A stretch of 64,000 nt of DNA from Candidatus Iainarchaeum sp. (GCA_018304465.1 JAGVWC010000009.1:1-64000); one strand, 5' to 3'. Shown: positions 26,014 through 49,094, counted from the first letter of the stretch. The notes: generated by a model not told the origin, from the sequence alone. A program made the numbers and translations.

Positions 26014-26245
26014 TATCAGACACCACACCAGTTGAATAAACGTGTGTGTGAAAAAATCAGTGGCAATCGGTTTAAAAAACGCTCCTCTGTTTAACAGATG
26101 AGAACAGGTTATAACTCAGTGAAAGTCGAGGTCTCCAAAAACCCTAAGCGAGTAATTAGAGATTGTACCAATAATCCTTTTTTAAGCCAAAAGACACTAT
26201 TTTTCATTGAATTCCTTTTCGAAATCAGGGGAACAGGGTTTTTGA

Positions 26246-29316: not shown

Positions 29317-29317
29317 T

Positions 29318-30469: not shown

Positions 30470-30479
30470 TCTCCAAAAA

Positions 30480-31811
30480 TCACAATCCGACCGATTGGTA
30501 TTTTTTTTCACTATTGCCAAATACGGGATTGTTTTTGTCAAAGAGCCGCCAGGTATCAAAAAATATGCCGCGGGGGGTCATTAATGGAATCAAATCTTGC
30601 AAAGGAATTTGTTGGTAACGTTTGGTGCTGGTGCAAAAGCAAACCGCGGATGCGTTTTTGAATCCTTCCGAAAGCGCTGTGGGAGTAACACCGAGGGATT
30701 TTATTTTTTCGAAAGGAACCAAGAAATCGTGTCCATATAGGTTATGATACCCCATTGTTTGGAATGCTTGCACAAGTTCGATAGTGGGGGAGTCTCGTAT
30801 ATCATCGGTTTCAGGTTCTCCTTTGAATGCAAATCCAAGCAAAAATATTTTTTTGGATGGATCGTTGAGTTCACTTGCGATTCGTTTTGCAACATGTCGA
30901 GGAAGATTTTCGTTAATTTGTCGAGCGGTTTTAATTAATCCAAGTTCAATCCCGTTTTTTTTTCCAACGTCAATCAAGATGTGAGGATCTTTTCGAAGAC
31001 AAAATCCACCAACGAATCCTCCACGGGGAACTTTTGAGGCACTAAATCCCGGAGACGGGATTGCTGAGCGAGAGTATTTGTAATTGGCCGCATGAATAAT
31101 TTCATTCGCATCCAGGGACTGTTTTTCACAGATATGCGATATTTCATTGGCAAATGCAAATGTCGTGTCGCGCCAGGAATTGTTGAGTAGTTTGACCATT
31201 TCAGCGGATTCTAATGACGAGAGCACGACGGTTTCCGTGGTGATTTTTGAAAAAAGTTCGACGGCTTTTTGAGCGCTTTCTGAGTCATACCCGCCGATGA
31301 TTTGGGGCAGTTCCTGGGATTCTTGCAGCGCTTTTCCTTCAATGGTGCGTTCAGGACAAAACGCCAAAAAAAACTTTTTTCCGGTTTTTTTCAAAATAGG
31401 ATACACAATGTTTCGCGTGGTCCCAACCGAAACCGTGCTTCGAAGGACCACAAGGCAGTTGTTTTCGATTTTTTGGGCTACTTGCTGGGTTGCGGTTTTA
31501 ATCTGGTCCAAAACGGGTAAATTGGTGGTTTTATCGATCGGAGTCCCCACGGTAATGACATACGCGTCCATAACTTGAGTGGGAACGGAGTTTGAAAAAG
31601 TTAAGGATCTGCCTTGATGTTTTTGAAGCGCTTCGGGAAGTCCAGCTTCAAAAAAGTGGGGTTTTCCGCTTTTTAATTGCTTTAATGTTTCGGGGTTGGT
31701 TTCCACCCCCACAATGCGAGGAATGTCTTTTTCGGCCATGACGACCGAGAGCGTTAGACCCACAAATCCCATTCCAATGACACAAACGGACTTCAATTCG
31801 ATCACAGACAA
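30480..31811 (-). CDS. UDP-HexNAc 6-dehydrogenase (WecC-like)
   Basis: IGMGFVGL, TVGTP, FCPERTIEG, AEMVKL, GGFCLRKD and AFKGEPETDDIRDSP motifs. Confidence 0.9.
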   Translation of the reverse strand: MSVIELKSVCVIGMGFVGLTLSVVMAEKDIPRIVGVETNPETLKQLKSGKPHFFEAGLPEALQKHQGRSLTFSNSVPTQVMDAYVITVGTPIDKTTNLPVLDQIKTATQQVAQKIENNCLVVLRSTVSVGTTRNIVYPILKKTGKKFFLAFCPERTIEGKALQESQELPQIIGGYDSESAQKAVELFSKITTETVVLSSLESAEMVKLLNNSWRDTTFAFANEISHICEKQSLDANEIIHAANYKYSRSAIPSPGFSASKVPRGGFVGGFCLRKDPHILIDVGKKNGIELGLIKTARQINENLPRHVAKRIASELNDPSKKIFLLGFAFKGEPETDDIRDSPTIELVQAFQTMGYHNLYGHDFLVPFEKIKSLGVTPTALSEGFKNASAVCFCTSTKRYQQIPLQDLIPLMTPRGIFFDTWRLFDKNNPVFGNSEKKYQSVGL

Positions 31812-31855
31812 TAAATCTTGGTTTTAGCGATTTTAAATGGTTTTGGTATAACCCT

Positions 31856-32653
31856 TCACAAAGGGGTTGGCCGGGCTAAATAATTGTTCGAATTACAGGG
31901 GGTAATTGAATAACCTTGTTTTTCCAAAAACGAGGCAACGGATTGATAGTGAGATTCTTCATTGGATTCAAAAAAAATCGTGGGCCGGTGCTGGGATATG
32001 GTTTTTTGAGCGCCTTTTAGCACCGCGAGTTCCATTCCTTCGACATCAATTTTAATCAAAGAAATGGGGCTTGATAATCGCAAGTGGAAAAGGATGTCAT
32101 CTAAGGGTCGTACGGGTACTTCTTTGGATTGGGATAATTGTATTTTTTTTTCGTGTTCCATTAATTCTTTGCTTGAAGGGTCCGCCGTAGCCAGCGGAGA
32201 AAAGGCGTGTTCAAAAAAAATTGTTTTTTTTTCTTCTTTGTCCGAAAGTCCCATTTTAATAATCAATAATTGGTCCGAAACAGGCGAGTCAGAAAACGCG
32301 GTCTCTACAAGGTCTGCAACTGTCGGATTGATTTCAAACGCAATAGCGGGTTGATGCGTGGTGTTGACGTAAAAAGCAGAAAAAAAAGCGAGATTGGATC
32401 CGATATCAAGAAAAGTTCCTTGGGGAAGTGAAAAAAAATCAAATTCCGTAAACCACGAAGGACTGAAATCAGTCGCATGATCATGAAGAAAACCTAAAAA
32501 AGTGCGATGATGATTGACTGGGATCCAAAAGTGGGATTGGTACAGCTTTTGTTTTCGAAGGGATCCATTGGCGAGCAAGGCTGGAAGTTGAAACATCAAC
32601 AGGGCTTTGTCGGTAGCGGTGCGGGCATACGAAAGGTATTGAGAAATGGTCAT
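31856..32653 (-). CDS. FkbM family methyltransferase
   Basis: FLDIGSN, AFEINP and LIKIDVEGMELAVLKGA motifs. Confidence 0.92.
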   Translation of the reverse strand: MTISQYLSYARTATDKALLMFQLPALLANGSLRKQKLYQSHFWIPVNHHRTFLGFLHDHATDFSPSWFTEFDFFSLPQGTFLDIGSNLAFFSAFYVNTTHQPAIAFEINPTVADLVETAFSDSPVSDQLLIIKMGLSDKEEKKTIFFEHAFSPLATADPSSKELMEHEKKIQLSQSKEVPVRPLDDILFHLRLSSPISLIKIDVEGMELAVLKGAQKTISQHRPTIFFESNEESHYQSVASFLEKQGYSITPCNSNNYLARPTPL

Positions 32654-32675
32654 AACAGTTTTATCACCAGAGCAC

Positions 32676-33734
32676 CTAAAAAACCTTTTTTGAAAACCCG
32701 TTTTGACTCAAGTGGGTTTCAAGAAGCGTTTGGAGTTTTTCCTGAAAAGGTGTAAAGGAAAAAATTTTTTCGATTTCTAAAAACGAAGCCTGCGGGGGAG
32801 TCAGTGCATCGGTTACTGCTTTTTTGAAATTGGATAATTGAGGGTTTGTCACGACTTTACAGTAGGGGTGCGAAATTTCTTTTGCGATCCCAAACGGGGT
32901 GGTGACAACAGGCGTGTGAGTGGCTAATGACTCAATCGTAACAAACCCAAAACTTTCAAATCGGCTTGGAAACAAAACCACGTCAGCGGCCGCGTAGTAT
33001 TCTCCCAGCACAGCAGGAGATACTGGTTCGCGAGCATCAATCCATTTGGAAGTAGCTTTAGGGAAAGTAATTGAAATAAAGTGCCAGTCGGTTTCTTTGG
33101 CCAGTGCTTCGACACGATCAAATCCTTTGTAGTATTCCGGTCGCCCCACAAACAATACGATTCGTTCGTCTTCTTTTACCCCGATTTTCTTTCGGGCTTT
33201 TCGTTTGTCACGAGGATGAAAAAAATTGGAATCGGCAGGCGGATGAATTACTTGCGAATCCAATCTATAATCAGTTTTCAATAATTCTCGGCAAAAATTT
33301 GAATTGGAAACCAGAAGGTCAGCGTTTGAAAAACTTTTCTTTTCAAACCACGCATAGGCGTATTCACATCGAAGACGATTAAATCCCCACGGCATCGCGT
33401 TTTTGGCCAGCGATTTCCAGGTTCCATGCACGAGTCCGATTTTTAAAAAAGGTGTTTTTTTGGGAAGTGCCCATCCGTAAAGACCGTTGTAGAAAACGAC
33501 TTCAGGGTCAAGTTCGGCTAAACGCTCGTTCAGTTGATTAGCCACTATTTTGGCTTTGTAGGGTTCGGATAGAAAAGGCCATGAAATGGAATCCGAGAAC
33601 GGAGTAAAATAAATGGTTTGAAGGCCATCCAAGGCATTCGATAGCAACTGAGAATAGCGTTCGACACCCGCCGGCACGGATTCAAAGGGTTGACCGGTGA
33701 GTAGCACCGCAGAAAAGCGCTTTTTTGAAGACAT
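32676..33734 (-). CDS. GT4 glycosyltransferase
   Basis: AGVERY, FVGRPEYYKG and PSRFESFGFVTIESLA motifs. Confidence 0.9.
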   Translation of the reverse strand: MSSKKRFSAVLLTGQPFESVPAGVERYSQLLSNALDGLQTIYFTPFSDSISWPFLSEPYKAKIVANQLNERLAELDPEVVFYNGLYGWALPKKTPFLKIGLVHGTWKSLAKNAMPWGFNRLRCEYAYAWFEKKSFSNADLLVSNSNFCRELLKTDYRLDSQVIHPPADSNFFHPRDKRKARKKIGVKEDERIVLFVGRPEYYKGFDRVEALAKETDWHFISITFPKATSKWIDAREPVSPAVLGEYYAAADVVLFPSRFESFGFVTIESLATHTPVVTTPFGIAKEISHPYCKVVTNPQLSNFKKAVTDALTPPQASFLEIEKIFSFTPFQEKLQTLLETHLSQNGFSKKVF

Positions 33735-33962
33735 GGGGATATTCCTTTAGTTTGACCACAGCAAATCCAATAACTTCCACATAATTTAAGATGCTATAAA
33801 AGATCATTTCGTTTGAATAATAAAAGGCTTTTGGGTCAGCAAAAATCAGAATAAGAATAAAAGTATGATGGTTGTGTTTTTTATTGAAACTAAATAAGGA
33901 ATACTTCCGAAAAATAAATTTTAATTTGCATTTCTTCATGAATTGTTTCCAAAGTGTTGACA

Positions 33963-34745
33963 ATGGAATTCCATCATTTTAAACGAACGTTTCGAAAAAT
34001 AAAAAAGACCCCGTCTTCAATCATCGGGATGTTTTCGCCGCGAAAAATTTCAATGGCCGTTTCATATATGTTTGAAATGAGCGAATACGAATTTGTTCAT
34101 CGTTTGACCGGTTGTTCGGAAAAAAAATTTTTTCGTCTTTTGGAAGAACTGAATTCTCAGAAAAAATTTTTCAATGCATTGGATAAAAAGCATAAAAAAT
34201 ATCTCAAAGATTCGATTTGGGAGCGTTTTCAGCCGTGGTTTCGCATCCTGTACATATTGATTCGGATCCAAAAACCCGAAAAAATGGTGGAAACGGGAAC
34301 TTTTTCAGGTTTGTCCACTTCAATTATTTTGCTTGCGATGAAAAAAAATCGCGGGGGACATTTGTACTCAATCGACCTTCCGATTCGGAATCCCAAAAAG
34401 GCCAAAAAAGACTGGATTTTAGAACCGCTTCCACCGGGAACTCATCCGGGATTTGCTATTCCGAATGTGTTGCGTAGTCGATGGGAATTAATCGAAGGAG
34501 ACAGTGGAAAAAATTTGCCTAAGTTGCTGGAAAAACTGGGGGAAATCGAAATTTTTTTCCACGATTCGGATCATTCATATGACCATATGATGATGGAATT
34601 TGGAACGGCCTGGCCATACATTAAATCCCGCGGACTATTACTGGCGGACAATGTGGATTGGAACCAGTCATTTAAAGATTTTGGTAAAAAGGTCGGGCAC
34701 AAACAAAATCAAAAATTTGGTTTTGGCGGAATTCTGAAACACTAA
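33963..34745 (+). CDS. class I SAM methyltransferase (Methyltransf_24-like)
   Basis: VETGTFSGLST, LYSIDLP, IEGDS, FHDSDHSY and LADN motifs. Confidence 0.88.
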   Translation: MEFHHFKRTFRKIKKTPSSIIGMFSPRKISMAVSYMFEMSEYEFVHRLTGCSEKKFFRLLEELNSQKKFFNALDKKHKKYLKDSIWERFQPWFRILYILIRIQKPEKMVETGTFSGLSTSIILLAMKKNRGGHLYSIDLPIRNPKKAKKDWILEPLPPGTHPGFAIPNVLRSRWELIEGDSGKNLPKLLEKLGEIEIFFHDSDHSYDHMMMEFGTAWPYIKSRGLLLADNVDWNQSFKDFGKKVGHKQNQKFGFGGILKH

Positions 34746-34755
34746 TTTTTCATGA

Positions 34756-35103
34756 TTACAATATCAACACCATGGCCATTGCATACTGGACGTCATGGGA
34801 AAGCGAACAAAAGATTGTTCTTTTTTTGAGTCCTGTTTTGTGAATTCGGATGGATGGAGACCCGTTTCGTAGAACAACTTCAATTTGGTTCCATGGAATT
34901 TGGGCTTGAACGCATTTTCGGACCGCTTCTTTGGCGCAGAATCGAGCGGCAAAATGTTGTCCGGGAACCGATTGGGCATTGCAATACCGGATCTCGGCCG
35001 CTGTAAAGACGCGCTGATAAAATCGTTTGTTTTTTGAAAATGGCCGCTGTTTGAATCGTCGCACTTGCTCAAAATCGATTCCGATTCCCTTCGGCTTTTT
35101 CAT
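34756..35103 (-). CDS. acpS: holo-ACP synthase (4'-phosphopantetheinyl transferase)
   Basis: GIGID, FTAAEIRYC, FAARFCAKEAVRK and SLSHD motifs. Confidence 0.93.
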   Translation of the reverse strand: MKKPKGIGIDFEQVRRFKQRPFSKNKRFYQRVFTAAEIRYCNAQSVPGQHFAARFCAKEAVRKCVQAQIPWNQIEVVLRNGSPSIRIHKTGLKKRTIFCSLSHDVQYAMAMVLIL

Positions 35104-35154
35104 GCACAACACTTTGGACAAATTCTTTAAAACACTACGTTACAGCAATCTTTC

Positions 35155-35379
35155 ATGCTCGAAAAGATCGAGAGTATTATCGCAAAGATTTTCGGAGCCA
35201 AAAATCCGCTTTCGAGATCCACTGTTCTTTCTTCGATTCCGTCTTGGGATTCATTGAATGCATTATTGTTGATCAGTGAGATTGAACAGGCGTTTGGGGT
35301 TACTTTTTCGGACCAAGAAATTTTATCGATTAAAACGATTGGCGATATTGAAGATTGCATTCGAAAAAAGAAAAGCTAA
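35155..35379 (+). CDS. acyl carrier protein
   Basis: 74 aa with the WDSL phosphopantetheine motif, helix II LISEIEQAFGVTF and KTIGDI. Confidence 0.9.
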   Translation: MLEKIESIIAKIFGAKNPLSRSTVLSSIPSWDSLNALLLISEIEQAFGVTFSDQEILSIKTIGDIEDCIRKKKS

Positions 35380-37208
35380 GAAACGATTTTTATTTTTCCC
35401 GGAATTGCTTGTTTAAACTCGTTTTTTCCAAGTGAAAAAAACCAGTGCGAGTCTCCTTTAGAAGTTGTTTTTTCGTTTGAAAACCCCGCGTTTAAAAACA
35501 AGTCTTTGGAAACTTGGTTTTTTTCGGTTCGAAGATAACGTCCCCTCACCATTGCGGCTTTTTGGCGTTTCGCGTTTTCGAGGACATATTGTAAAAGCGC
35601 GTACTCTACTTTGCGGCCTAGTACCCGGCAACTGAGCAAAAAGGAATCAATATTCCATTCGTTTGGATTCGTTTTGTCCAAAATCAGGACGCCGACAATT
35701 CCGTTGTCTCCAAAGCGGTCTTTGACACGGATTGCCAGTATGTTCCACTTGGAGTTTTTTTGCATGTTTTCAATTTCAGCCACCGTATATCGTTTGGTCG
35801 TGAGATTAAACTGGTTGGTTTTGTGCACGAGTTGGGTGATGCGATCCAGGTTTTCGGGTTTTGCCGAAAACACCGTGATTTCTTGTTTTAATCCTTTTAA
35901 ATAAGCTTCGAGCGAACCGGCTTGTTCTTTGAATTCAGTTCTTTGGCGTTGTTTTTGGTACATTTCTTTTTTTTCCAGGTCTTCTTTGGTGATTGCGATT
36001 TTTTCAAAAAACGGTTGTTTGGATAAAAACAACCGGTATTCTTTGGGATCTTCGGGCATTTCTGGCACTGTGACCTGCGGCAGCATTGTGGCTACGAGGC
36101 CTCGTTCAATTGGGTTGTCATCGACAAACACCATGCTGTCGAGCCCGATGTTTAGTTCGTCGGCAATGGATTGGAGGTTTTGGGCTTTGTCCGTCCAGTT
36201 GATTCGAATCGAGGCAAAATCGCTTTTTTGGAGTACCATGTCAGAGTGTTTTTGAAACACTTCTTCGACGTCTTCCGGATTGTTTTTGCTATTGATCGCA
36301 AGCAAAATTCCGCGTTCGGTTAGTTGTTTTAGAAATTGTTGAAATTCAAAAAATTCTTTTCCGGCACTGGTTTTGCTGAGTTTAATATGTTCTAAACCAT
36401 CTTCTCCGATAACGCCTCCCCAGAGCACATTGTCCAAATCCAAGACTACGCATTTTTTGGTTGTGCCCTTGAAGGCGCGCACGTATCGGTTTAATTGATT
36501 GGCAATAAACACCATGAAATCATAGGACCATCGGATGTCCCCGCGGTAATATAATCTTGGATCAAAGGCGCGTTCGCGTCCAAACACACTGGCCGCATAC
36601 TCAGTATCCAATACAAATACGTTTTTTACGTTGGAAAACGTTTTGGCCAGTTGTTGATTGGTTTTTTGAATGAGTTCTACTTGTCCCGAACTTTTGTTAT
36701 CCAAAATTCCAAGGGATAAGGGAAACGGAAGGCGAAAATTACTCACCAAAATTAAGGACCTGGTTTTTTGAACAAGCACTTCGACTAGTTGGCCTACGTC
36801 TTTAACGGCTTCTTGGCATTCTTTTTCTTTTTCCAAAACGGTTGTTTTCAAACTCCATTCAAAGCTTTTGGGAAGAATGGTTTGTCCATCCAGAGCCAAA
36901 AAAACGATTTCGGGGGAAAACGCGTATAGTTCGGAAGATGGATCCAAGATTTCTTTATGCACTTGGTTGTAAGGTCCAAAGTAAATCGTGGGGTTAAACC
37001 CTGCCAATCGACAAGCCAGGGAAAGCGGAATCTCCATGGGTCGAATCGTAAAATTGGACAATACTGCAATTTTGAGGGGTGGGAGAGAATTGGTTTCTTT
37101 TTGGAATTCGTGAAAAAGATCAGTGGTTTCAAGATACGTCAATGCATCGCGGTTCTTCAACAGGAGAAGATATTCCTCGAACAAGGTTTTGCGAAGGGTT
37201 TGGGTCAT
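35376..37208 (-). CDS. FkbH-like glyceryl-ACP synthase (HAD-IIIC phosphatase/acyltransferase)
   Basis: KCVVLDLDNVLWGGVIGEDG, INSKN, FVDDNPIE, KTNQFNLT, DRFGDNG and thioester-Cys motif FLLSCRV. Confidence 0.95.
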   Translation of the reverse strand: MTQTLRKTLFEEYLLLLKNRDALTYLETTDLFHEFQKETNSLPPLKIAVLSNFTIRPMEIPLSLACRLAGFNPTIYFGPYNQVHKEILDPSSELYAFSPEIVFLALDGQTILPKSFEWSLKTTVLEKEKECQEAVKDVGQLVEVLVQKTRSLILVSNFRLPFPLSLGILDNKSSGQVELIQKTNQQLAKTFSNVKNVFVLDTEYAASVFGRERAFDPRLYYRGDIRWSYDFMVFIANQLNRYVRAFKGTTKKCVVLDLDNVLWGGVIGEDGLEHIKLSKTSAGKEFFEFQQFLKQLTERGILLAINSKNNPEDVEEVFQKHSDMVLQKSDFASIRINWTDKAQNLQSIADELNIGLDSMVFVDDNPIERGLVATMLPQVTVPEMPEDPKEYRLFLSKQPFFEKIAITKEDLEKKEMYQKQRQRTEFKEQAGSLEAYLKGLKQEITVFSAKPENLDRITQLVHKTNQFNLTTKRYTVAEIENMQKNSKWNILAIRVKDRFGDNGIVGVLILDKTNPNEWNIDSFLLSCRVLGRKVEYALLQYVLENAKRQKAAMVRGRYLRTEKNQVSKDLFLNAGFSNEKTTSKGDSHWFFSLGKNEFKQAIPGKIKIVS

Positions 37209-37951
37209 GGCATGATGCTCCCGCCGCTCACAACAATATTGGATCCGGTCAAATATTGGCTTTCATCACTTGCCAAAAAAACAATGGTTTGAGCAATTTC
37301 TTTTGGCGTAGCAATGCGTTTGAGCGGAATCTCTTGGGTTTTTTGGCGGAGGGTTTCTTCGGATAAATGAGCAATAGCATCGGTTTGGGTGATCCCAGGA
37401 GAAACCATGTTGACGCGGATTTGATAGGCGGCCAGTTCGCTCGCAAGTGATTTGGAGAGGCCCATTAAGGCGGATTTCGCCGAAACGTACGAACTCAACA
37501 TGACCGGGGGTTTTCCAAGGGCATAAGTGGAAAGAATATTAATAATACTCCCTTTTTTTTGTTGGATCATAGAGGGCAGCACGCTTTGGATACAGTAAAA
37601 GGATCCACCCAAATGTACCGTAATATCTTTTTGGACATCGCTCCATTCAAGTGTTTGAAAACGTTTGGGAAGAATGGGACCGCTGGCATTATTCACGAGC
37701 ACGTCAATGGATTTGAACCGATTCAAGGCTTGTTGAACCATAGAGTGTACTGCGTTGGGGTCCGTTACATCGGCTTGGATGGCAATGGCGTGGGAACCAA
37801 GTTCTTTGGCGAGTTTTAATGCATTGGCGGAATCCGAGTTATAATTAATGATGACTTTGGCGCCTTCAGATACACATAAACGACAAATTTCGCTTCCGAT
37901 GCCGCCGCTTCCGCCGGTTACCAGCACTACTTTGTTTTTGAGTCGCTCCAT
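37205..37951 (-). CDS. SDR ketoreductase (FabG-like)
   Basis: TGGSGGIG, LVNNA, YVSAK and IRVNMVSPG motifs; overlaps the FkbH start. Confidence 0.92.
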   Translation of the reverse strand: MERLKNKVVLVTGGSGGIGSEICRLCVSEGAKVIINYNSDSANALKLAKELGSHAIAIQADVTDPNAVHSMVQQALNRFKSIDVLVNNASGPILPKRFQTLEWSDVQKDITVHLGGSFYCIQSVLPSMIQQKKGSIINILSTYALGKPPVMLSSYVSAKSALMGLSKSLASELAAYQIRVNMVSPGITQTDAIAHLSEETLRQKTQEIPLKRIATPKEIAQTIVFLASDESQYLTGSNIVVSGGSIMP

Positions 37952-37955
37952 GGAT

Positions 37956-38387
37956 TCACCTCAATACCTTGACTTTGGCAACCCCGTCCACCAGAATTTC
38001 TTCTTTTGCATTTCGGGCTTGGGTTTGGATGGTTAAAATGCGCGTTGAATCGGATTTTGCAATGACGGTTCCTTGAATCGTGAGTCGAGAAGGAAGAAAG
38101 ACGGGTTTTCGAAAAACGCTTTCCTGAGAAAGATACAGGCAATATTTTCCTGGAAGATGCATCCCAACCAATTGCGAAAAGAAAGCGTTGATAAGTGCTC
38201 CGTGACAAATAGGTTGCGAAAACTCGGTTTCTTTGGCATACGTTGGATCCATGTGAAGCGGGTTGTAATCCCCTGAAAGGCCTGCAAATTCTTTTACTGT
38301 TTGATGGTTAACCGTTACAGGAAAGGAAACATGGCTGCCGATTTGAATTTCGTCAAATACTTTTTCTTCGACCGAAGCCGCCTTCAT
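37956..38387 (-). CDS. MaoC-like hot-dog dehydratase
   Basis: FAGLSGDYNPLHMD, HGAL, LPG and FRKPV motifs. Confidence 0.92.
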   Translation of the reverse strand: MKAASVEEKVFDEIQIGSHVSFPVTVNHQTVKEFAGLSGDYNPLHMDPTYAKETEFSQPICHGALINAFFSQLVGMHLPGKYCLYLSQESVFRKPVFLPSRLTIQGTVIAKSDSTRILTIQTQARNAKEEILVDGVAKVKVLR

Positions 38388-38935
38388 AAGGTTGACACCA
38401 CCCGTGCTGGATTTCCAAGTGCAACGGAATGAGGGGGAATACTCGAAGCCACAACGCTTCCTGCGCCGATGAGCGCGTATGGTCCAATGTGCACACCAGG
38501 TAAGATAATAGACCCGCTTCCGATGTATACATGGTCGTGAATTTGAATCGGGTCGCTGGTAATGGAGCGACCGGGAATAGCACAGGGTCGAAATGATGCG
38601 GATGGTTTGGCTGAGACTTTTGACATGGATTCGATTCCATGAGTTAAGAAGGTTACGTGGGGGGCAATATCCACATTGTTTCCGAGAATAATTTTTTCTT
38701 CAAGATCAAACATCGTGAGGTTTCCGATCACTACGTCATTTCCAATCTCTAGATTTTTGTAGGAATAGATTTGAAAAAAGCGTAATTCTCCCATCACAAC
38801 GTTGGATCCGATTCGGCATCCAATTAATCGAAATAAAAAAGTTCGAATGGGGGGAAGCAAAATGATCCTCTGAATTCGGTCAAAAATGAGGAAAAAAAAG
38901 AGGACTATGCGACTTGGCTTTTGAGTCATGAACAC
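38384..38935 (-). CDS. hexapeptide-repeat (LbH) acyltransferase
   Basis: IGSNVV/IGNDVV/LGNNVD repeats, IGSGSIILPGVHIG and GNPARV. Confidence 0.9.
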   Translation of the reverse strand: MFMTQKPSRIVLFFFLIFDRIQRIILLPPIRTFLFRLIGCRIGSNVVMGELRFFQIYSYKNLEIGNDVVIGNLTMFDLEEKIILGNNVDIAPHVTFLTHGIESMSKVSAKPSASFRPCAIPGRSITSDPIQIHDHVYIGSGSIILPGVHIGPYALIGAGSVVASSIPPHSVALGNPARVVSTL

Positions 38936-38970
38936 CTAAACAACTATGTAAAGATATGGTATATATTTTT

Positions 38971-39927
38971 TTAGTTACGGTGTCCGGGTGGGGAAAAGAT
39001 CCCTTTTAATGAAAATGAACGTAGGTATTGAGAAATAGTTGGGTAATATAGGACGAAAAACAACCCGCTCGTCGCCTGGTTGATAATCAAGACAATGGTT
39101 AAAGCCAGCAAGGAAATTTCAACAGGGATCGAAATCAAGGTATACAAATATACCAGACTCCCTTCCTTTAGTCCGATGCCACTGGGAGTAATGGGAATAT
39201 ACCCAATCAAAAGCGATGCGATACTTAGAATGACAAACGGAATAATGGGCGGAGAGAGCCCAAACCCCAAGAAGACAATGTAAAGCGTCATACTTGCGAT
39301 AACAAGTCGAAGAATGCTTAGAACCAGATTCAAAAGAATTCTTTTTTTTTCGAATAGATACAATTGAATGGTTTTTCCGAATCCTTCCAACAGCGGTTTT
39401 TCAGTGGGAAAAAAACGCTGAATAACTTTTCGCACCAATACGCGTCCCGTAGGGGTGAGACTAAAAAAAGATAAAATCATTAATCCCGCGATTCCAAGCA
39501 AAAGCATAACGAGGGTATTTTCTAAGAAAAACGCTACGGATAACGCCACAAAAATCAAAACTGCCACCAGTGAAATCAGTTTGTCCAAAAATACCATCGC
39601 GCTGGTGCTTCCTAGGCGTGCGCCTTTTTTTTCCAAAAAAGTCGCTACAAATAGTTCACCTAAATGACCAGGCAGGAAAGCATTGATTGCAAAAAGGAGA
39701 TTGGACAGCGTTACGGATTCTTTGAAAGAAATTTTCAATACGGGTTGTGCAAAAAAATATAGATTCAATCCCGAAACAAGGAAAGTGAACGCGATAGGAA
39801 TAAGAGTCAATAAGAGAAAAACGAAATTAAAACGAGAAAACGCGGCAATAATTTTTTCAGGTCCGACGGTCAAATAAAGAATACTCAGAATCAGGAGTCC
39901 GATTCCAATTCCGATTCTTTTGTCCAT
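38971..39927 (-). CDS. UPF0104/LPG-synthase-TM family putative lipid-linked sugar flippase
   Basis: NAFLPGHLGE, VFLDK and IPITPSGIGLKE motifs; multi-TM. Confidence 0.85.
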   Translation of the reverse strand: MDKRIGIGIGLLILSILYLTVGPEKIIAAFSRFNFVFLLLTLIPIAFTFLVSGLNLYFFAQPVLKISFKESVTLSNLLFAINAFLPGHLGELFVATFLEKKGARLGSTSAMVFLDKLISLVAVLIFVALSVAFFLENTLVMLLLGIAGLMILSFFSLTPTGRVLVRKVIQRFFPTEKPLLEGFGKTIQLYLFEKKRILLNLVLSILRLVIASMTLYIVFLGFGLSPPIIPFVILSIASLLIGYIPITPSGIGLKEGSLVYLYTLISIPVEISLLALTIVLIINQATSGLFFVLYYPTISQYLRSFSLKGIFSPPGHRN

Positions 39928-39959
39928 ACAGATCCATTAAACATTTGAAAGAAAAAGGG

Positions 39960-41069
39960 TTAGTTTTGTGAAAAAAAGTTTCGAACGACTTGAATGACAT
40001 AGTCAATTTGTGCGCGTGTAATTCCCGCACCACTAGGCAATGACACTCCACTCGAGCTAATTTCTTCGGAAACAGGAAACGATTCGGAAGAGTGGTACGG
40101 TGGAAGTTGACTCAAGGGATAAAATACACGACGCGAATCAATTCCGTGTCTTTTTAGGACATTCATAAACGAATCACGATGAGGTACCTTGATCGTGGTC
40201 ATCCACCATACGCTTTCTGAGTTTTTTGGGGATTGTTGAAATTCAATTGAAGAAATATCCGAAAGACCGTTCAGATAGGCTTTGTACACTTCTTTTTTTT
40301 GTTGAATAATTTTTTGGATTCCTTCCAATTGTCCCAATCCAAATCCGGCTTGTAAAGCGGTCATTCGATAGTTGAACGCAATTTCGGGATGCCAGTATTG
40401 TTGCTCGGGAATCATTCCGTGGTTTTTCAAAAAATTAACCCGGTCGATTAATTGAGAATTGTTCGATACGACCATTCCGCCTTCGCCCGTCGTAATGATT
40501 TTGTTTCCAAAAAAGCTGAATGCGCTCAAGTCTCCGAATCCGCCCACGGTTTTTCCTTCAAAGCGGGCGCCGTGTGCTTCCGCCGCATCTTCGATGAGAG
40601 GCAGCTGGTGGGTTTTGGCAATTTTGGTTAATGCCGACATGTCACACGGAGCACCATATAGATGAACACACACAATTGCTTTGGTTTTATCCGTTATTTT
40701 TTCTTCGATTTTTTTTGGGTCCAAGTTCCAGGTTTTTGGATCCACATCGACAAACACGGGTTTGGCCCCTAAATATGCCGCGGCATTGGCGGTTGCAATA
40801 AACGACAAATTCGGCATCAAAACTTCGTCGTCTTTTTGGATTCCGACCGCGTGGTACGCCAAATGCAAGGCGGCAGTTCCATTCGAAACCGAAGTTGCGT
40901 ATCGGGTTCCCACAAATTGCGCGAATGCATCTTCAAAGCGTTTGACAAACGGGCCTTTGGAGGAAACCCATTTGGTTCGAATGGCTTCGGTTACGTATTT
41001 TTCTTCGTTACCGCAAAGGATGGTATCGGCAATGGGAATGAATTCGTGGACTTCTTTTTGTAAGGTCAT
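39960..41069 (-). CDS. DegT/DnrJ PLP aminotransferase (perosamine synthase-like)
   Basis: WVSSKG, SNGTAALHLA, EDAAEA, SFFGNKIITTGEGG and NYRM motifs; ATG at 41069. Confidence 0.94.
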   Translation of the reverse strand: MTLQKEVHEFIPIADTILCGNEEKYVTEAIRTKWVSSKGPFVKRFEDAFAQFVGTRYATSVSNGTAALHLAYHAVGIQKDDEVLMPNLSFIATANAAAYLGAKPVFVDVDPKTWNLDPKKIEEKITDKTKAIVCVHLYGAPCDMSALTKIAKTHQLPLIEDAAEAHGARFEGKTVGGFGDLSAFSFFGNKIITTGEGGMVVSNNSQLIDRVNFLKNHGMIPEQQYWHPEIAFNYRMTALQAGFGLGQLEGIQKIIQQKKEVYKAYLNGLSDISSIEFQQSPKNSESVWWMTTIKVPHRDSFMNVLKRHGIDSRRVFYPLSQLPPYHSSESFPVSEEISSSGVSLPSGAGITRAQIDYVIQVVRNFFSQN

Positions 41070-41076
41070 TTTTTCC

Positions 41077-42066
41077 TCATTGGACGAGCGATTTTTGTTT
41101 GGCTGCTTCCCATGGCCATTTTTGATCATTCTCGTTGAAATAGTCCACGGTTTTTTGCAGTCCTTCTTCAAAGGATACTTTGGGTTCCCAGCCGGTTAGT
41201 TTATGGAGTTTGAAATAACTGGCTTGGAGTTGTTCAACATCGAGGGGTCGTAAGCGTCGTTGTTCAATGGAAATATCAATGGAATCATGACCCATGATGG
41301 CCGATATTTTTTCGGCGATTTCTTTGATGCTAAAATCGGTTCCATAGCCGCCGTTAAAGACTTGGCCCACGGCTTTGGGTTCTTTCATCAATGCGATCCC
41401 GGCTTTGGCGGCGTCAGTTACGTAAGTAAAGTCGCGGCGGGCATTGATATTTCCGAGTTTGAGCTTGTTCGATTTCGATAATTGTGAAATGAGTTCCGGG
41501 ATAATGTAAGGATGGGTTTCGCGGGGTCCAAAGCAATTGAATTGGCGCAAAATAATAACGGGCAGTTCTTGTTCGTAATGTAAGGTGTAACAGAGTCGAT
41601 CCGCAGCGGCTTTGGCCACTGCGTAGGTCGAATGCGGATTGATGGGATGGTGTTCGTCCATGGGAACTTGACGCGCGGTTCCATAGACTTCGCTCGTGGA
41701 CCATTGAATGATGCGTTCAACCCCGGTTTTTTTGGCTGCCAGCATGACATTTAATGCACCGGTGGCGTTGATGTCAAAAAAATCAAAGGGTTTGTCGTAA
41801 CAATCGGGAATATACGGCATGGCCGCGAGATTGAACACGTATTGGATATGATGATCCTTTAAAATCTGGGAAAACAGGGGACTTCGGATGTCTTCTTCAA
41901 TGATCGTGATTTCGTTTTTGATTTCTTCAAGGTTTTCGTGTAATCCGCTCATGAAATTGTCCAGTATCGTGACATTGGCGTTTACAGCCCGTAACTCTCG
42001 AACGAGGGTAGAACCGATAAATCCGGCGCCCCCCGTGACCATAACGTTTTTTCCAGATAAACTCAT
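41077..42066 (-). CDS. NDP-hexose 4,6-dehydratase / extended SDR
   Basis: TGGAGFIGS, STSEVYG, YAVAK and RDFTYV motifs. Confidence 0.9.
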   Translation of the reverse strand: MSLSGKNVMVTGGAGFIGSTLVRELRAVNANVTILDNFMSGLHENLEEIKNEITIIEEDIRSPLFSQILKDHHIQYVFNLAAMPYIPDCYDKPFDFFDINATGALNVMLAAKKTGVERIIQWSTSEVYGTARQVPMDEHHPINPHSTYAVAKAAADRLCYTLHYEQELPVIILRQFNCFGPRETHPYIIPELISQLSKSNKLKLGNINARRDFTYVTDAAKAGIALMKEPKAVGQVFNGGYGTDFSIKEIAEKISAIMGHDSIDISIEQRRLRPLDVEQLQASYFKLHKLTGWEPKVSFEEGLQKTVDYFNENDQKWPWEAAKQKSLVQ

Positions 42067-42196
42067 AACAATCCCCAAGTATTACTTCTTACTACTTTAT
42101 CCTACCTTTATGTTTTTATAAAGATTTTGGTGCGATCAAACCCCTTTTTCCGGTTTCGAATGCAAATTTAAATACTTTGACGGTTTTTTTGGATAG

Positions 42197-42931
42197 ATGA
42201 AGGAAAAAATATCCATTTCACTTGATTCCGGCACGATTGCGTCCCTGGATCAAAGTATTGATAATAAATTGATTCGAAATCGAAGCCAAGCCGTCGAATT
42301 CGTTTTGGCCCAATATTTTGATTCCAAAGCCCCGCTCAAAGCCGTGTTGCTGGGCGGCAAACTGGAAGAATCCGCCAAACTGTTGAATTTGAACAAGATT
42401 CTGGATGAATTGGCCCAAGCCGGCGTCACGGAACTCATTGTCGCGGGCGGAAAAGCAACGGAGCGGATTTTTTCGGAAATCCAAAAACATCCGTTTTATT
42501 CGAAAAAATGCATGTACTTGCGTGAAGACGCTCCGCTTGGAACCGCGGGCGCGGTAAAACTGGCGGCCAATTATTTGCAGCACGCGTTTATCGTCACGTA
42601 TTTGGACGTCGAATTTTCCATGGACTTGGCCAAGATGGTTGCGTTTCATAAAAAATCCCGCGGACCGGCCACCATGGCGGTCACGTATGTGGAAGGAAAC
42701 AACCTGACGGATTACATTCGGATTTCAGGGGAAAACATCAGCGAATTCGAATACAAATCCGGTCGCACCACCAAATTGCAGAACGCGGCCGTGTATGTAT
42801 TCGAGCCCTCGATTTTGGAAGAGTTGCCTTCAAAAGGCGGCTTGGAAAAAGAATTGTTTCCGCAATTGGCCAAAGAAGGAAAGCTTCGCGGATTCATGTT
42901 CGACACCAAATGGAAGCATCTTGAAAAATAA
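42197..42931 (+). CDS. ribbon-helix-helix domain fused to a degenerate sugar-phosphate nucleotidyltransferase domain
   Basis: KISISLD...LDQSI...NRSQAVEFVL (CopG/NikR-like), then AVLLGG lacking GTRL, EDAPLGTAGAV, NAAVYVFEP and LEKELFP. Confidence 0.8.
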   Translation: MKEKISISLDSGTIASLDQSIDNKLIRNRSQAVEFVLAQYFDSKAPLKAVLLGGKLEESAKLLNLNKILDELAQAGVTELIVAGGKATERIFSEIQKHPFYSKKCMYLREDAPLGTAGAVKLAANYLQHAFIVTYLDVEFSMDLAKMVAFHKKSRGPATMAVTYVEGNNLTDYIRISGENISEFEYKSGRTTKLQNAAVYVFEPSILEELPSKGGLEKELFPQLAKEGKLRGFMFDTKWKHLEK

Positions 42932-42937
42932 CATCGA

Positions 42938-44029
42938 TTATTTTTTCTTGTGGCCGCGCGCCAATTCCGCTAAAACGGCTTCAAGCGTGATGCGAAGAAC
43001 CGGGGTCAAACGACCGCTGTTTTTTTGAATGAAATCCATAATTCCTTTTTTTGAGAATTTGATAATGGCAAAATAAGCCGCTTCGTCATCTTTTGGTTTG
43101 TTTCGAAGCTGATATTCGCCAGGTTTGGTTTCGATGAATGCCTCGCGGACAAAATCGTATGGGTCACTGGCCCGATATTCAATGGCGTAAACGAATTCCG
43201 CACTCGGATCCACTTTTTCCAGGCTTCGCGCAAAAGCGATTGGTTCGCCTTTTTTAATTGTGCGACGCGTGGTTTTCAATGTTCGAAGTCCGCGTCCAAG
43301 AAAGGAAAGATTCTTAGGCGAAAACCCGGTTTCTTCCGCGATTTCGTTCAAGGCGTGCCGCGCGGGAACGACGGGTTTTTTTCGGAATTTTTTCGAATCG
43401 CTTTCAACGGTTCCGCCGATGACGTGAAAAAAATGATCGTACAGACGCGTGTTTCCCCGATTCGGAATTACCAAAAACGTTTTTCCAATCGAAAGCAATC
43501 CAGACGCGCCAAGCAATTGGGAAAACGTTTTGGCATACCCGATTTTTCCGCGAGAGCGGTTTTCTTCTCGAAATAATTTTCGGACTTGGGTTTGCATCAT
43601 TCCCCGAAGCACATCTCGTGCGCGCAAGTTGTCGCCGTATGTTCCCGGGGCAAGGGTTACTCGCAAGGTTCCTTTTTTGGTAACGTCCATGCGATCAATG
43701 GTGTGTTTGGTCGTTGGATGCCGATCCGCGTAAGACCACGGGGCTTTTCCGCCGTTTTCACGTGTTTTTCGGGCAAGTAAATCATTTGCTTGTGTAATGA
43801 CTGCTTTTGCAGAGGGAGTTTTTTTTGTTTTTTGTTTATATGCGACTTTGGGCGAGTGAAAACCAATGCGGCCCACGGCGGATAGTTCACCGGGGTGTTC
43901 TGGCTTTTTTCGTTGTCGCACGATCAGGAGGTTTTGTTTGAGTTTTCGAACACGATAACCTGCAGCAGGCATAACAATAAGAGCATGCGCGGCATATTTA
44001 TCTTTTTCTGTTTTTTCGTACCGAATCAT
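42938..44029 (-). CDS. hypothetical basic protein with a Nudix-box-like motif
   Basis: 363-aa ORF containing IGGTVES...HALNEIAEETGF; very Lys/Arg-rich. Confidence 0.55.
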   Translation of the reverse strand: MIRYEKTEKDKYAAHALIVMPAAGYRVRKLKQNLLIVRQRKKPEHPGELSAVGRIGFHSPKVAYKQKTKKTPSAKAVITQANDLLARKTRENGGKAPWSYADRHPTTKHTIDRMDVTKKGTLRVTLAPGTYGDNLRARDVLRGMMQTQVRKLFREENRSRGKIGYAKTFSQLLGASGLLSIGKTFLVIPNRGNTRLYDHFFHVIGGTVESDSKKFRKKPVVPARHALNEIAEETGFSPKNLSFLGRGLRTLKTTRRTIKKGEPIAFARSLEKVDPSAEFVYAIEYRASDPYDFVREAFIETKPGEYQLRNKPKDDEAAYFAIIKFSKKGIMDFIQKNSGRLTPVLRITLEAVLAELARGHKKK

Positions 44030-44060
44030 TAAAATAGTGTTTTTGAAGTAGTTTTCATGT

Positions 44061-45200
44061 ATGAAAGTCTTTGTCGTAGGTCCGATTTACCCTTTTCGCG
44101 GAGGAATTGCGCACTCGAACAGGATTCTTTGCGAAAACCTCCAGAAAAAGCATGACGTGACGGCGATTTCTTTTTCGCGCATGTATCCAAAAATCTTGTA
44201 CCCTGGGAAAGAGCAAAAAGAAGTCACGGAAGACGCTTCGTTTGCGGTGAAAACGGAGTACTTTCTGGATTCCATGAATCCACTGACGTGGTTTAAGGTC
44301 GCGGACCGGATCAAAAAAGAACAGCCGGACTGGGTGGTGTTTCAATGGTGGCACACGTTTTTTGCTCCCCTGTACTGGACGATTGCGAAATTTGGGAAAA
44401 ACCAAAAAACACGGTTTTCCGTGGTTTGTCAAAACGTGTTGCCGCACGAAGAAAGCAAAGTGCACGAGTCCTTGACGAAATTTTTTTTCGGAAAAGTGAA
44501 TTATTTTATCACATTATCCAGTTCGGATCTGCAAATTTTGAAAAAATTGTTGCCGTCGGCGAACGCGAACTGGATTACGGAATCAACGTACGAAACCCAG
44601 TTTGGCCAAAAGTCATCCAAAGCGGAGGCCAGGAAAAAGCTGGGTGTGAAAGGAAACGCGATTTTGTTTTTCGGGTTCGTGAGGCCGTATAAGGGATTGG
44701 AATTTTTGTTGCGGGCGATGCCTGAGCTTTTGAAGAAAAAACACGATTTGACCTTGATGATTGTAGGCGAGTTTTGGAATGATAAAAAAGAATATTTTAA
44801 TTTGATGGACGAATTAAAAATTAAGGATCATTTATTGATCGTTGACCGATATGTGGCCAACGATGAGGTTCCGACGTATTTTTCGGCCGCGGATGCCGTG
44901 GTATTACCTTATGTTTCTTCTACCGAATCAGGAATCATTCAATTGGCTTATGGACTAAACACGCCAGTGATCACAACGGCAGTCGGCGGAAATGTGGATC
45001 TGATTGAACATGAAAAAACCGGGCTGCTTTGCAGACCCAAAGACCCAGCCGATTTGGCCCAAACGGTTCTTTCGTTTTATCAAAAAGACCTTGAAGGCCC
45101 TATCAAAAAAGGAATGCGACAAAACGCTGACTTGTTTAGATGGACCTCGGAAAAAGAAAGCGTTTTTTTTAACCAAAAACAATCCAAAGGAAAGGAGTGA
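44061..45200 (+). CDS. GT4 glycosyltransferase
   Basis: GPIYPFRGGIAH, FFGFVRPYKG and AADAVVLPY motifs. Confidence 0.93.
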   Translation: MKVFVVGPIYPFRGGIAHSNRILCENLQKKHDVTAISFSRMYPKILYPGKEQKEVTEDASFAVKTEYFLDSMNPLTWFKVADRIKKEQPDWVVFQWWHTFFAPLYWTIAKFGKNQKTRFSVVCQNVLPHEESKVHESLTKFFFGKVNYFITLSSSDLQILKKLLPSANANWITESTYETQFGQKSSKAEARKKLGVKGNAILFFGFVRPYKGLEFLLRAMPELLKKKHDLTLMIVGEFWNDKKEYFNLMDELKIKDHLLIVDRYVANDEVPTYFSAADAVVLPYVSSTESGIIQLAYGLNTPVITTAVGGNVDLIEHEKTGLLCRPKDPADLAQTVLSFYQKDLEGPIKKGMRQNADLFRWTSEKESVFFNQKQSKGKE

Positions 45201-45204
45201 AACC

Positions 45205-45441
45205 GTGTCACAAGAGTTGGAGATTGTAAAAGGGTTTAAATCCAAGTTTCTAGACTTTGTTCCGCCCGAAAAAAAAGAGCGGATAGAAAAAGAATTCGGA
45301 AAAGTTGTGGCGGGCATTCCACCCACAGAACTAGAAAAAATTTCAAAGTATATTTTGTTGTATAAAAACAGGGTAACAGATTCTGAACAGATTTATTTTT
45401 CAAAAAAATCTGCTGATTTGTTGAAACCATTTTTTCTTTGA
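45205..45441 (+). CDS. small hypothetical protein (78 aa)
   Basis: GTG at 45205 after GGAGTGA; fills the gap between two GT4 genes. Confidence 0.45.
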   Translation: MSQELEIVKGFKSKFLDFVPPEKKERIEKEFGKVVAGIPPTELEKISKYILLYKNRVTDSEQIYFSKKSADLLKPFFL

Positions 45442-45477
45442 AAAACATGCAAAAGAGTGAAATTGAGTTTGAAAAAA

Positions 45478-46563: not shown

Positions 46564-46574
46564 TTGTCAATCGA

Positions 46575-49024: not shown

Positions 49025-49094
49025 ACGGATCGCTATAATGGGATGGTTCTTTTGGGTTTTATTTGTTTTGGTATCCTTACAGGTTTACCCTAGT

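Follow-up and report, generated by a model that had tools for sequence, protein, structure and literature searches.

Enzymes of the FkbH family load units derived from 1,3-bisphosphoglycerate (1,3-BPG) onto acyl carrier proteins (ACPs). FkbH/FkbJ, OzmB and ZmaN/ZmaD form glyceryl-ACP for the production of (hydroxy/methoxy)malonyl-ACP, and the dehydratase-ketoreductase-FkbH-ACP (DH-KR-FkbH-ACP) loading units in the trans-acyltransferase (trans-AT) polyketide synthases (PKSs) of FR901464 and bryostatin reportedly convert glyceryl-ACP to lactyl-ACP. In Vibrio cholerae O1, RfbK-O carry out an ACP-dependent synthesis of tetronate, which N-acylates perosamine, and in the NodB/NodA/NodF and LpxC/LpxD systems de-N-acetylation is followed by an acyl-ACP-dependent N-acylation of an amino sugar, LpxD being a left-handed β-helix (LbH) enzyme that uses acyl-ACP. 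Here we analyse a cassette of nine genes from Candidatus Iainarchaeum sp. (GCA_018304465.1), in which an FkbH, an ACP and an AcpS-type phosphopantetheinyl transferase (PPTase) lie together with an LbH acyltransferase and sugar-modifying genes. The cassette occupies positions 34756-42066 of the window, i.e. the whole stretch of 64,000 nt that was analysed, with which a contig of 189,695 bp (JAGVWC010000009.1) begins.

According to two sources, most or nearly all archaea lack ACP and ACP synthase (PMC3533463; bioRxiv 10.1101/2024.07.05.601840). We lean, if only slightly, towards reading the cassette as a self-contained unit that would supply an acyl-ACP and transfer a C3 hydroxyacyl group onto an amino sugar within an archaeal glycan island. 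That the module provides an acyl-ACP derived from glycerate, to be used in decorating glycans, is a narrower claim and appears probable, while the specific assignment of the acyl group as lactyl is put forward tentatively, as a possibility a little short of even.

Gene content of the cassette and the proposed acyl-ACP route

The features of the cassette are as follows:

34756-35103, minus strand: AcpS-type PPTase (PF01648, TIGR00556); the open reading frame (ORF) extends to a TTG at 35121, the ATG at 35103 being the likelier start
35155-35379, plus strand: ACP of 74 aa (PF00550, 34.2 bits), with Ser33 in WDSL
35376-37208, minus strand: FkbH of 610 aa (TIGR01686, PF21211), predicted glyceryl-ACP loader
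37205-37951, minus strand: classical short-chain dehydrogenase/reductase (SDR), FabG-like (adh_short_C2, 195 bits), proposed 2-ketoacyl-ACP reductase
37956-38387, minus strand: MaoC / (R)-specific hydratase-dehydratase (PF01575, 68.8 bits), proposed glyceryl-ACP dehydratase
38384-38935, minus strand: LbH acyltransferase (Hexapep, 51.7 bits), proposed to transfer the acyl group from ACP
38971-39927, minus strand: polytopic membrane protein, LPG_synthase_TM or 'flippase-like' (PF03706, 108 bits; TIGR00374, 72 bits)
39960-41069, minus strand: DegT pyridoxal-phosphate-dependent sugar aminotransferase (PF01041, 412 bits); the ORF extends to a TTG at 41171, the ATG at 41069 being likelier
41077-42066, minus strand: extended-SDR, NDP-sugar 4,6-dehydratase-like and LegB-like protein (PF16363, GDP_Man_Dehyd, 204 bits); the ORF extends to 42078, with the ATG at 42066

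All nine genes named in the initial annotation were recovered at their places, including the end of the cassette at 42066, and the profile searches that it had proposed (PP-binding, ACPS, the FkbH TIGRFAM and MaoC) each scored over threshold. Indeed, all nine proteins lie above Pfam gathering thresholds and their catalytic motifs are intact. Seven genes run along the minus strand from 42066 to 35376, in the order LegB-like extended SDR, DegT, PF03706 protein, LbH, MaoC, FabG-like SDR and FkbH, with intergenic gaps of -4 to 35 nt. The ACP gene overlaps the FkbH stop codon by 4 nt and is followed by AcpS, again on the minus strand. ACP is thus, as had been noted, the sole plus-strand gene of the cassette, and its orientation is reproduced in independent contigs.

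FkbH scored 322.6 bits against TIGR01686 (cut-off 146.65) and 79.2 bits against the HAD-IIIC model TIGR01681 (cut-off 35.75). It consists of an FkbH_N domain (PF21211), a HAD-IIIC phosphatase domain and a C-terminal Cys domain, with DLDNV at residues 257-261 and S-C-R at residues 526-528; D257, D259 and C527 were invariant in an alignment of 25 sequences. Among solved structures it matches PDB 3slr (BF1531) with an E value of 5e-62 over residues 34-405. Loading of glyceryl onto ACP from 1,3-BPG is established for the family and predicted here. One passage of the literature gives FkbH loading modules as '1,3-bpg + ACP -> D-lactate-ACP' (PMC7901079).

The ACP reached 34.2 bits against PF00550 (cut-off 20.8), with DSL at residues 32-34, and scored below the housekeeping AcpP equivalog models (e.g. 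TIGR00517, 22.6 versus 70.45). When it was aligned with 25 other FkbH-linked ACPs, W31 and D32 were invariant in all 26. AcpS scored 67.5 bits against PF01648 (cut-off 25) and 65.1 against TIGR00556 (cut-off 45.35), and remained below the acpS equivalog TIGR00516 (52.2 versus 59.8). In MaoC the hydratase-2 motif FAGLSGDYNPLHMDPTYA is intact with its catalytic Asp and His, and the protein matches PDB 1iq6 (E 1e-21). The SDR carries TGGSGGIG (TGxxxGxG), NNAS and YxxxK intact and scored below the FabG equivalogs (TIGR01830, 191.5 versus 297.75; NF004198, 203.5 versus 296).

The whole genome (1.25 Mb, completeness 91.9%, contamination 0.41%) contains a single FkbH, a single PPTase match and a single ACP over cut-off, all of them in the cassette; therefore, these three must serve each other. 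The initial annotation had described a stand-alone ACP module, and by gene content the module is indeed self-sufficient, carrying the only PPTase of the genome. A Pfam scan bore out that the window has no ketosynthase, PKS or non-ribosomal peptide synthetase, and no ketosynthase was found in the 1.25-Mb genome at its 91.9% completeness, the single PF00109 match (21.9 bits) being a thiolase. With a single PPTase and FkbH, and with the only ketosynthase match being a thiolase, the ACP would be primed and loaded by the cassette's own enzymes, and no PKS or fatty acid synthase (FAS) was found that could consume the product. A possible source of 1,3-BPG is present, as the genome contains a PGK gene.

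Alternatively, the genes might serve a polyketide synthase, with a hydroxymalonyl- or methoxymalonyl-ACP as extender unit or a lactyl group as starter. The combination of FkbH and ACP with methyltransferases close by does resemble FkbGHIJK, and MaoC-SDR-FkbH-ACP matches the loading modules of trans-AT PKSs. However, no ketosynthase was found in the genome, the neighbours are glycosyltransferases and sugar-modifying enzymes, and neither an acyl-CoA dehydrogenase nor a 3HCDH match was found among the 42 window ORFs in the Pfam scan. We therefore rejected PKS supply, on account of the missing ketosynthase in a 91.9%-complete genome, and give it next to no weight.

The mechanism that we propose builds on gene identities, intact motifs, genome uniqueness and, as described below, conserved synteny and gene fusions; from these we infer every chemical step, the donor used by LbH, the acceptor atom and the final glycan. 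AcpS would convert the dedicated apo-ACP to holo-ACP with CoA. FkbH would then dephosphorylate 1,3-BPG and load it as glyceryl-S-ACP via the conserved Cys527. MaoC could remove the 3-OH of glyceryl-ACP, giving an enol-pyruvoyl and then a pyruvoyl-ACP, the 2-keto group of which would be reduced by the FabG-like SDR to yield lactyl (2-hydroxypropanoyl)-ACP. LbH is proposed to pass the C3 hydroxyacyl group from ACP to a sugar, the likeliest acceptor being the 4-amino group of an NDP-4-amino-4,6-dideoxyhexose, and this NDP-4-amino sugar could be provided by the LegB-like dehydratase and the perosamine-synthase-like DegT, which appear to be co-transcribed with it. The acylated sugar would finally enter a surface or N-linked glycan assembled by nearby glycosyltransferases and AglB.

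FkbH neighbourhoods in other genomes

For comparison, we used 81 loci, namely the best-scoring 80 of at least 597 confirmed FkbH relatives (not a random sample) and one relative of the same order. Neighbours within 3 kb of FkbH were counted by phmmer (E≤1e-3) with the window proteins as queries, a procedure that undercounts divergent partners. ACP was found in 66 loci, MaoC in 19, LbH in 18, SDR in 16 and AcpS in 10. The ACP gene is mostly directly downstream of FkbH, and both are co-directional in 65 of the 66 other loci in which the two lie no more than 3 kb apart. In the window it occupies this canonical place just 3' of FkbH, yet it is inverted. AcpS adjoins FkbH in 6 of the 9 loci from archaea and in one from the candidate phyla radiation (CPR), as against 3 of 71 other bacterial loci. 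This is consistent with hosts that have no housekeeping PPTase.

The gene order of the window, LbH-MaoC-SDR-FkbH-ACP, recurs unchanged in a locus from Nitrospinota (L023) and almost unchanged in one from Clostridiaceae (L069). The window MaoC is 42-43% identical to the FkbH-adjacent MaoC of L021, L023 (43.1%), L027 and L034, and its SDR is 41.7% identical to that of L023. In L029 and L051, a single protein, composed of an N-terminal MaoC part and a C-terminal SDR part, directly adjoins FkbH, the SDR half of the L029 fusion being 39.6% identical to the window SDR, and in L033 and L040 longer proteins that match both MaoC and SDR adjoin FkbH-ACP. Both the fusions and the conserved gene order link MaoC and SDR to FkbH-ACP.

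MaoC and SDR might instead work on CoA thioesters, providing for example (R)-3-hydroxybutyryl-CoA for N-acylation, while FkbH-ACP has a separate function; amino sugars with an N-3-hydroxybutanoyl group do occur in bacteria. A preprint describes an ACP-independent archaeal fatty-acid route in which FabG-like SDR and MaoC enzymes use CoA substrates (bioRxiv 10.1101/2024.07.05.601840), and the genome has a thiolase, which shows that CoA-dependent metabolism is present. Nevertheless, many unrelated lineages have MaoC and/or SDR next to FkbH-ACP, and fusions of the two occur there, whereas the thiolase gene is located on another contig (C5). We consider action on CoA thioesters decidedly unlikely and retain a MaoC and SDR that would act on the ACP-bound acyl group.

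Neighbourhoods from Asgard archaea were sampled separately: 20 loci were picked from 47 genomes with AcpS near FkbH and one more was added. These loci are related to each other and do not amount to 20 independent observations. In 20 of the 21 (L102-L122), AcpS-FkbH-ACP is accompanied by a convergent LbH gene about 245 nt away and an adjoining Polysacc_deac_1 gene, while the remaining locus ends at a contig edge. LbH homologues lie beside FkbH in all 21 Asgard loci examined. A Glyoxalase_4/VOC gene is near this five-gene unit in 9 of the 21 loci.

Other recurrent neighbours of FkbH, identified by Pfam searches on cluster representatives, were GT4, GT2, sulfotransferase, polysaccharide deacetylase and GNAT proteins, and a VOC/Glyoxalase_4 protein occurred in 16 FkbH loci. 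After ACP, a PIG-L de-N-acetylase follows in L023 and an aminoglycoside N-acetyltransferase-family gene in the CPR locus L014, both of which point to amine acceptors. In 16 bacterial loci, including L086 and L031, the arrangement is FkbH-ACP-MBOAT, the MBOAT protein (about 484 aa) usually being the second gene after FkbH. This arrangement looks like a Dlt-like extracytoplasmic O-acylation from the same acyl-ACP; a 376-aa protein without Pfam match often follows MBOAT. Judged from these neighbours, the general setting of the FkbH-ACP pair is glycan modification, with varied transferases putatively drawing on one acyl-ACP source.

Extending this idea, FkbH-ACP, supplemented by its own AcpS in hosts that have no other, might be the core of a widespread system for ACP-dependent glycan acylation. 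Its transferases (LbH, MBOAT or NAT-GNAT) would be interchangeable, its tailoring enzymes (MaoC-SDR, VOC-glyoxalase or HMGL-like) optional, and its products glyceroyl, lactyl or pyruvoyl groups on the surface sugars of many bacteria. We offer this as a conjecture that has somewhat less than an even chance of being right.

Proposed acyl transfer and the candidate acceptor sugar

The stop codon of LbH is overlapped by 4 nt by the start of its neighbour, which places LbH inside the MaoC-SDR-FkbH run. Its best PDB match is QdtC (3fs8; E 1.5e-15, residues 55-181), and its closest counterpart among the LbHs compared, at 38.8% identity, is the one encoded beside AcpS-FkbH-ACP in the Asgard locus L011. 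DegT has GDP-perosamine synthases as its closest solved structures (3bn1, E 3e-94) and scored 369.4 bits against the LegC model TIGR04181, under the cut-off of 420. The dehydratase, with motifs STSEVYG and YAVAK and PDB matches 6dnt and 6bi4, reached 240.9 bits against the LegB model TIGR04180, under the cut-off of 475. A pathway to legionaminic (nonulosonic) acid was considered and rejected, since the only NeuB match of the genome is a DAHP synthase (NF006421, 405.7 versus 335) and both LegB and LegC are below cut-off.

On this evidence, N-acylation is favoured over O-acylation as the predicted reaction. The pairing of LbH with a deacetylase in the Asgard loci points to an ACP-dependent N-acylation: a deacetylase and an acyltransferase together follow an N-acyl exchange logic on an amino sugar, and in the window the amine would come from DegT instead. 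With the same acyl-ACP supply, LbH could also esterify a sugar hydroxyl (O-glyceryl or O-lactyl), the DegT product being acylated otherwise or left free. The best NCBIfam matches of LbH (WbbJ, WcaF, LacA and maltose O-acetyltransferases) are of this kind, maltose and galactoside O-acetyltransferases come close behind QdtC in the PDB search, and the His at the O-acetyltransferase-family position is conserved in the window, L011-L013, L017 and L089. MBOAT, which follows ACP in the 16 bacterial loci mentioned above, is likewise an O-acyltransferase family. However, the top solved relative QdtC is an N-acetyltransferase, homologous LbH genes are paired with a de-N-acetylase-family gene in 20 of the 21 Asgard loci, and the window LbH appears co-transcribed with an aminotransferase. 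We give O-acylation a small but real chance.

A further alternative is that LbH is an ordinary sugar acetyltransferase that uses acetyl-CoA and has no connection with the ACP. The C3 acid on ACP would then be delivered to some other acceptor, such as a lipid or glycolipid, via the PF03706 protein or another transferase. All solved relatives of LbH presumably use acyl-CoA as donor, the PF03706 gene lies between LbH and DegT, and 63 of the 81 FkbH loci have no LbH homologue within 3 kb. On the other hand, adjacency of LbH and FkbH recurs in Asgard archaea, Nanoarchaeota, Nitrospinota, Gemmatimonadota and other lineages, no PF03706 homologue adjoining FkbH was found in the 81 loci used for comparison, and the 4-nt overlap speaks for LbH as part of the same run. 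We judge this alternative unlikely and prefer LbH as the candidate enzyme that takes the hydroxyacyl group from ACP.

Several observations weigh against the route to an N-acylated amino sugar as proposed. The LbH protein is only 26-28% identical to the LbHs of the syntenic bacterial loci L023 and L069. Its top NCBIfam models remain those of O-acetyltransferases (NF007240 WbbJ, 69.6 versus 243; NF007797 WcaF, 68.2 versus 192), and the NeuD/PglD/VioB model TIGR03570 gave 59 bits (versus 160.8) and covers only residues 123-178, the C-terminal 56. We also take it to be without the extra C-terminal domain carried by LpxA and LpxD, and the acyl-CoA donors assumed for its solved relatives count on the same side, as no close relative is known to use acyl-ACP. 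The dehydratase also resembles UDP-xylose synthases, and the island contains two NDP-sugar 6-dehydrogenases, so that a 4-amino-pentose is possible as the acceptor. DegT is within 3 kb of FkbH in only 2 of the 81 loci, which makes the link to an amino sugar locus-specific. MaoC occurs without SDR in L021, L027, L034 and L045, and its product therefore need not be reduced by such an SDR. Because ACP lies on the opposite strand, its co-expression with the operon is putative. Finally, no biochemical or glycan-structure data were found for this or homologous loci.

Genomic setting, distribution and comparison with known systems

The cassette is part of a glycosylation island of about 40 kb, which contains GT2 and GT4 glycosyltransferases, NDP-sugar dehydrogenases, methyltransferases, a carbamoyltransferase, a Wzx-like protein and RmlB. 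Upstream lie archaeal genes (L10/P0, L1, FtsZ, ribose-1,5-bisphosphate isomerase, AMP phosphorylase, TBP and an AglB-type oligosaccharyltransferase), and downstream, beyond the window, a geranylgeranyl-reductase-like gene and DAHP synthase, among others. Three further features adjoin or lie within the cassette:

33954-34745, plus strand: class I methyltransferase (Methyltransf_24; PF13578, 67.6 bits), convergent with AcpS
35127-35132, no strand: TTTAAA palindrome in the AcpS/ACP spacer, read from the sequence as a candidate shared TATA box
42197-42931, plus strand: sugar-1-phosphate nucleotidyltransferase-like protein, divergent (PF00483, 46 bits)

The TTTAAA lies in the 51-nt spacer between the divergent starts, at distances of 24 nt (AcpS) and 23 nt (ACP) from the two ATG codons, and may be an archaeal TATA box shared by two leaderless transcripts, those of AcpS and ACP. 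Oligo-T tracts are found 3' of both convergent stops, of ACP and of FkbH. A homologue of the methyltransferase lies 1.9 kb from FkbH in 1 of the 81 loci (L018), a weak link by which it may be a tailoring enzyme. For the nucleotidyltransferase-like protein, the top NCBIfam match was mannose-1-phosphate guanylyltransferase, at 53 bits far below cut-off.

Some other genes of the island deserve mention. A second PF03706 'flippase-like' gene (134 bits) adjoins a GT2 gene at 48059-50081 (minus strand), a pair that calls to mind the synthesis and flipping of lipid-linked monosaccharides. A B12-binding radical SAM enzyme (24457-26028, minus strand) and a NodU/CmcH-type carbamoyltransferase (26246-28015, plus strand) suggest additional unusual sugar modifications.

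It could be argued that the cassette comes from a bacterium and was joined to an archaeal contig by an assembly error. The island (about 21000-63000) has a GC content of 0.40-0.44 versus 0.479 for the genome and a low tetranucleotide similarity (3rd-22nd percentile), and FkbH groups with bacterial sequences. However, the cassette (tetranucleotide r = 0.913, 14th percentile) is not an outlier inside the island and no more atypical than the rest of it, there is no sharp junction, and archaeal genes are found on both flanks. The window has zero N letters, and Logan contigs from four runs of three studies not flagged as possible sources tile positions 27000-46900 with zero differences. This support is piecewise, as no listed single contig covers the full 19.9 kb. 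One of them, spanning 31432-36408 (4,977 bp), runs from an FkbM-type methyltransferase (31856-32653) through GT4, Methyltransf_24, AcpS and the inverted ACP into FkbH. In addition, contamination is as low as 0.41% and the best FkbH identity anywhere is 42-46%. As to the continuity with the ribosomal protein genes, which the initial annotation had wanted checked, the contig is archaeal on both sides, and the independent contigs agree with it piecewise over 27000-46900. A bacterial chimera is very unlikely, with a probability near to negligible. Low GC and atypical composition are frequent traits of surface-glycan islands.

The contig data also contain some irregularities. In all four runs, a contig joins position 40248 back to 37797 with six extra letters between; two of these runs, X6 and X7, appear to be the same data set deposited twice. 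Individual contigs also diverge at several places, e.g. after 35409, at the ACP/FkbH boundary, and these may represent strain variants or other organisms with parts of the locus.

More than 7,997 proteins are related to the window FkbH at E≤1e-20, with named relatives from Asgard lineages, Bathyarchaeota, Woesearchaeota, Nitrososphaerota, Patescibacteria and Clostridia. The rarity implied at the outset was therefore overstated, as FkbH-ACP is widespread in bacteria. The view that archaea generally lack ACP chemistry held for the phylum of the window's genome, in which FkbH was found in 7 of 215 genomes sampled (5 over cut-off) and AcpS in 4 of 215, but not for archaea overall: among 301 Asgard genomes sampled, 63 have an FkbH over cut-off, so that ACP chemistry is not exceptional there. 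An AcpS domain is also present in 56 of these 63 genomes, within 3 kb in 47, and the FkbH-ACP module accounts for most of the small stand-alone AcpS genes in the Asgard sample.

Within the same family, FkbH was absent from all three genomes. A quick maximum-likelihood tree of FkbH, which is unrooted and includes many rows of unusual composition, showed archaeal sequences interleaved with bacterial ones, and the window FkbH was sister to a group from Geminicoccaceae, Thermoanaerobaculia and Thioalkalispiraceae (SH-aLRT 91, not starred). The FkbH of a genome of the same order (G024) lies across a 100-supported split from it, which suggests separate horizontal acquisitions, and its module is without MaoC, SDR or LbH. 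The module of the window was probably acquired horizontally.

Further observations were made along with this survey. In the locus of G024 (L009), AcpS-FkbH-ACP is followed by an HMGL-like (aldolase/lyase family) gene, beside seryl-tRNA synthetase. A fully supported sister pair is formed by the FkbH of L028, from a Marine Group I thaumarchaeote, and that of L021, a locus labelled Acidiferrobacteraceae that also has ACP, MaoC and AcpS; this could be a recent transfer or a mis-binned contig. Three genomes of another family of the same phylum (f20; G088, G100 and G108, loci L097-L099) have FkbH matches of 205-215 bits in ORFs of about 352-357 aa without FkbH_N; AcpS was not detected in these incomplete genomes, and two other f20 genomes have AcpS without FkbH. 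In the Asgard sample, an AcpS domain lies inside an ORF of at least 1,000 aa in 48 of 301 genomes, and of at least 2,500 aa in 35. The one such ORF that was scanned (G333, L101:5705-15778, minus strand; 3,357 aa) reads NMO(ER)-KS-AT-ACP-KR-DH-PPTase, beside a carboxyltransferase, and is a type I FAS/PKS-like megasynthase in Asgard archaea.

Our searches of the literature outside subscription journals yielded no account of FkbH in connection with polysaccharides, O-antigens, capsules, glycans or archaea. A common, putatively ACP-dependent system of glycan acylation appears to have gone unnoticed. For Tannerella Pse5Am7Gra, a passage of one source states that the gene for the N-glyceroyl group 'remains elusive' (PMC6120980), and our proposal, if true, would offer a candidate for the missing route to such N-glyceroyl sugars. 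It would also qualify the view of archaea as being without ACP chemistry, the locus representing an archaeal ACP system apart from fatty acids that is compact, self-priming and wired into glycan synthesis. Should the chemistry hold, the cassette would serve as a genetic marker predicting C3 hydroxyacyl decorations on surface glycans, and AcpS, ACP, FkbH, MaoC, SDR and LbH would make up a small enzyme set directly testable in vitro.

Compared with the loading units of FR901464 and bryostatin, the cassette has the same dehydratase, ketoreductase, FkbH and ACP functions and would perform the same chemistry from 1,3-BPG to lactyl-ACP. Here, however, these are free-standing proteins of MaoC type and classical SDR type rather than PKS DH and KR domains, no ketosynthase was found in the genome, and the proposed acceptor is a sugar instead of a polyketide chain. 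With FkbH/FkbJ, OzmB and ZmaN/ZmaD it shares a TIGR01686 score over cut-off, the HAD motif, the conserved Cys and a dedicated small ACP; it differs from them by MaoC, SDR and the glycan context, and FkbI/FkbK-type oxidoreductases were not found among the scanned ORFs. BF1531 of Bacteroides fragilis (3slr, an 'uncharacterized protein') is the only solved relative of the N-terminal and HAD parts of FkbH, but this 387-residue chain is without the C-terminal Cys domain and has no recorded function.

On the transfer side, QdtC is the best solved relative of LbH and acts on an NDP-amino-dideoxyhexose; it uses acetyl-CoA, whereas the window LbH has a WbbJ/WcaF-type N-terminal segment and is linked by its gene to an ACP. 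The NodB/NodA/NodF and LpxC/LpxD systems resemble the Asgard pairing of LbH with a polysaccharide deacetylase (20 of 21 loci) and the PIG-L gene of L023, while in the window the amine would come from DegT, the group would be a C3 hydroxyacyl rather than a fatty acyl, and LbH is without the extra domains of LpxD. RfbK-O of V. cholerae O1 share with the cassette a dedicated ACP in a surface-polysaccharide locus, a perosamine-synthase-like DegT, and a proposed 4-amino-4,6-dideoxyhexose acceptor with an LbH-type transferase; there the acyl group comes from an acyl-CoA-ligase-like route, whereas here it would be provided by FkbH from 1,3-BPG, in an archaeal host and with its own AcpS. The biochemistry of each part is therefore familiar, while the combination and its use are unstudied, and the locus is one instance of a large family.

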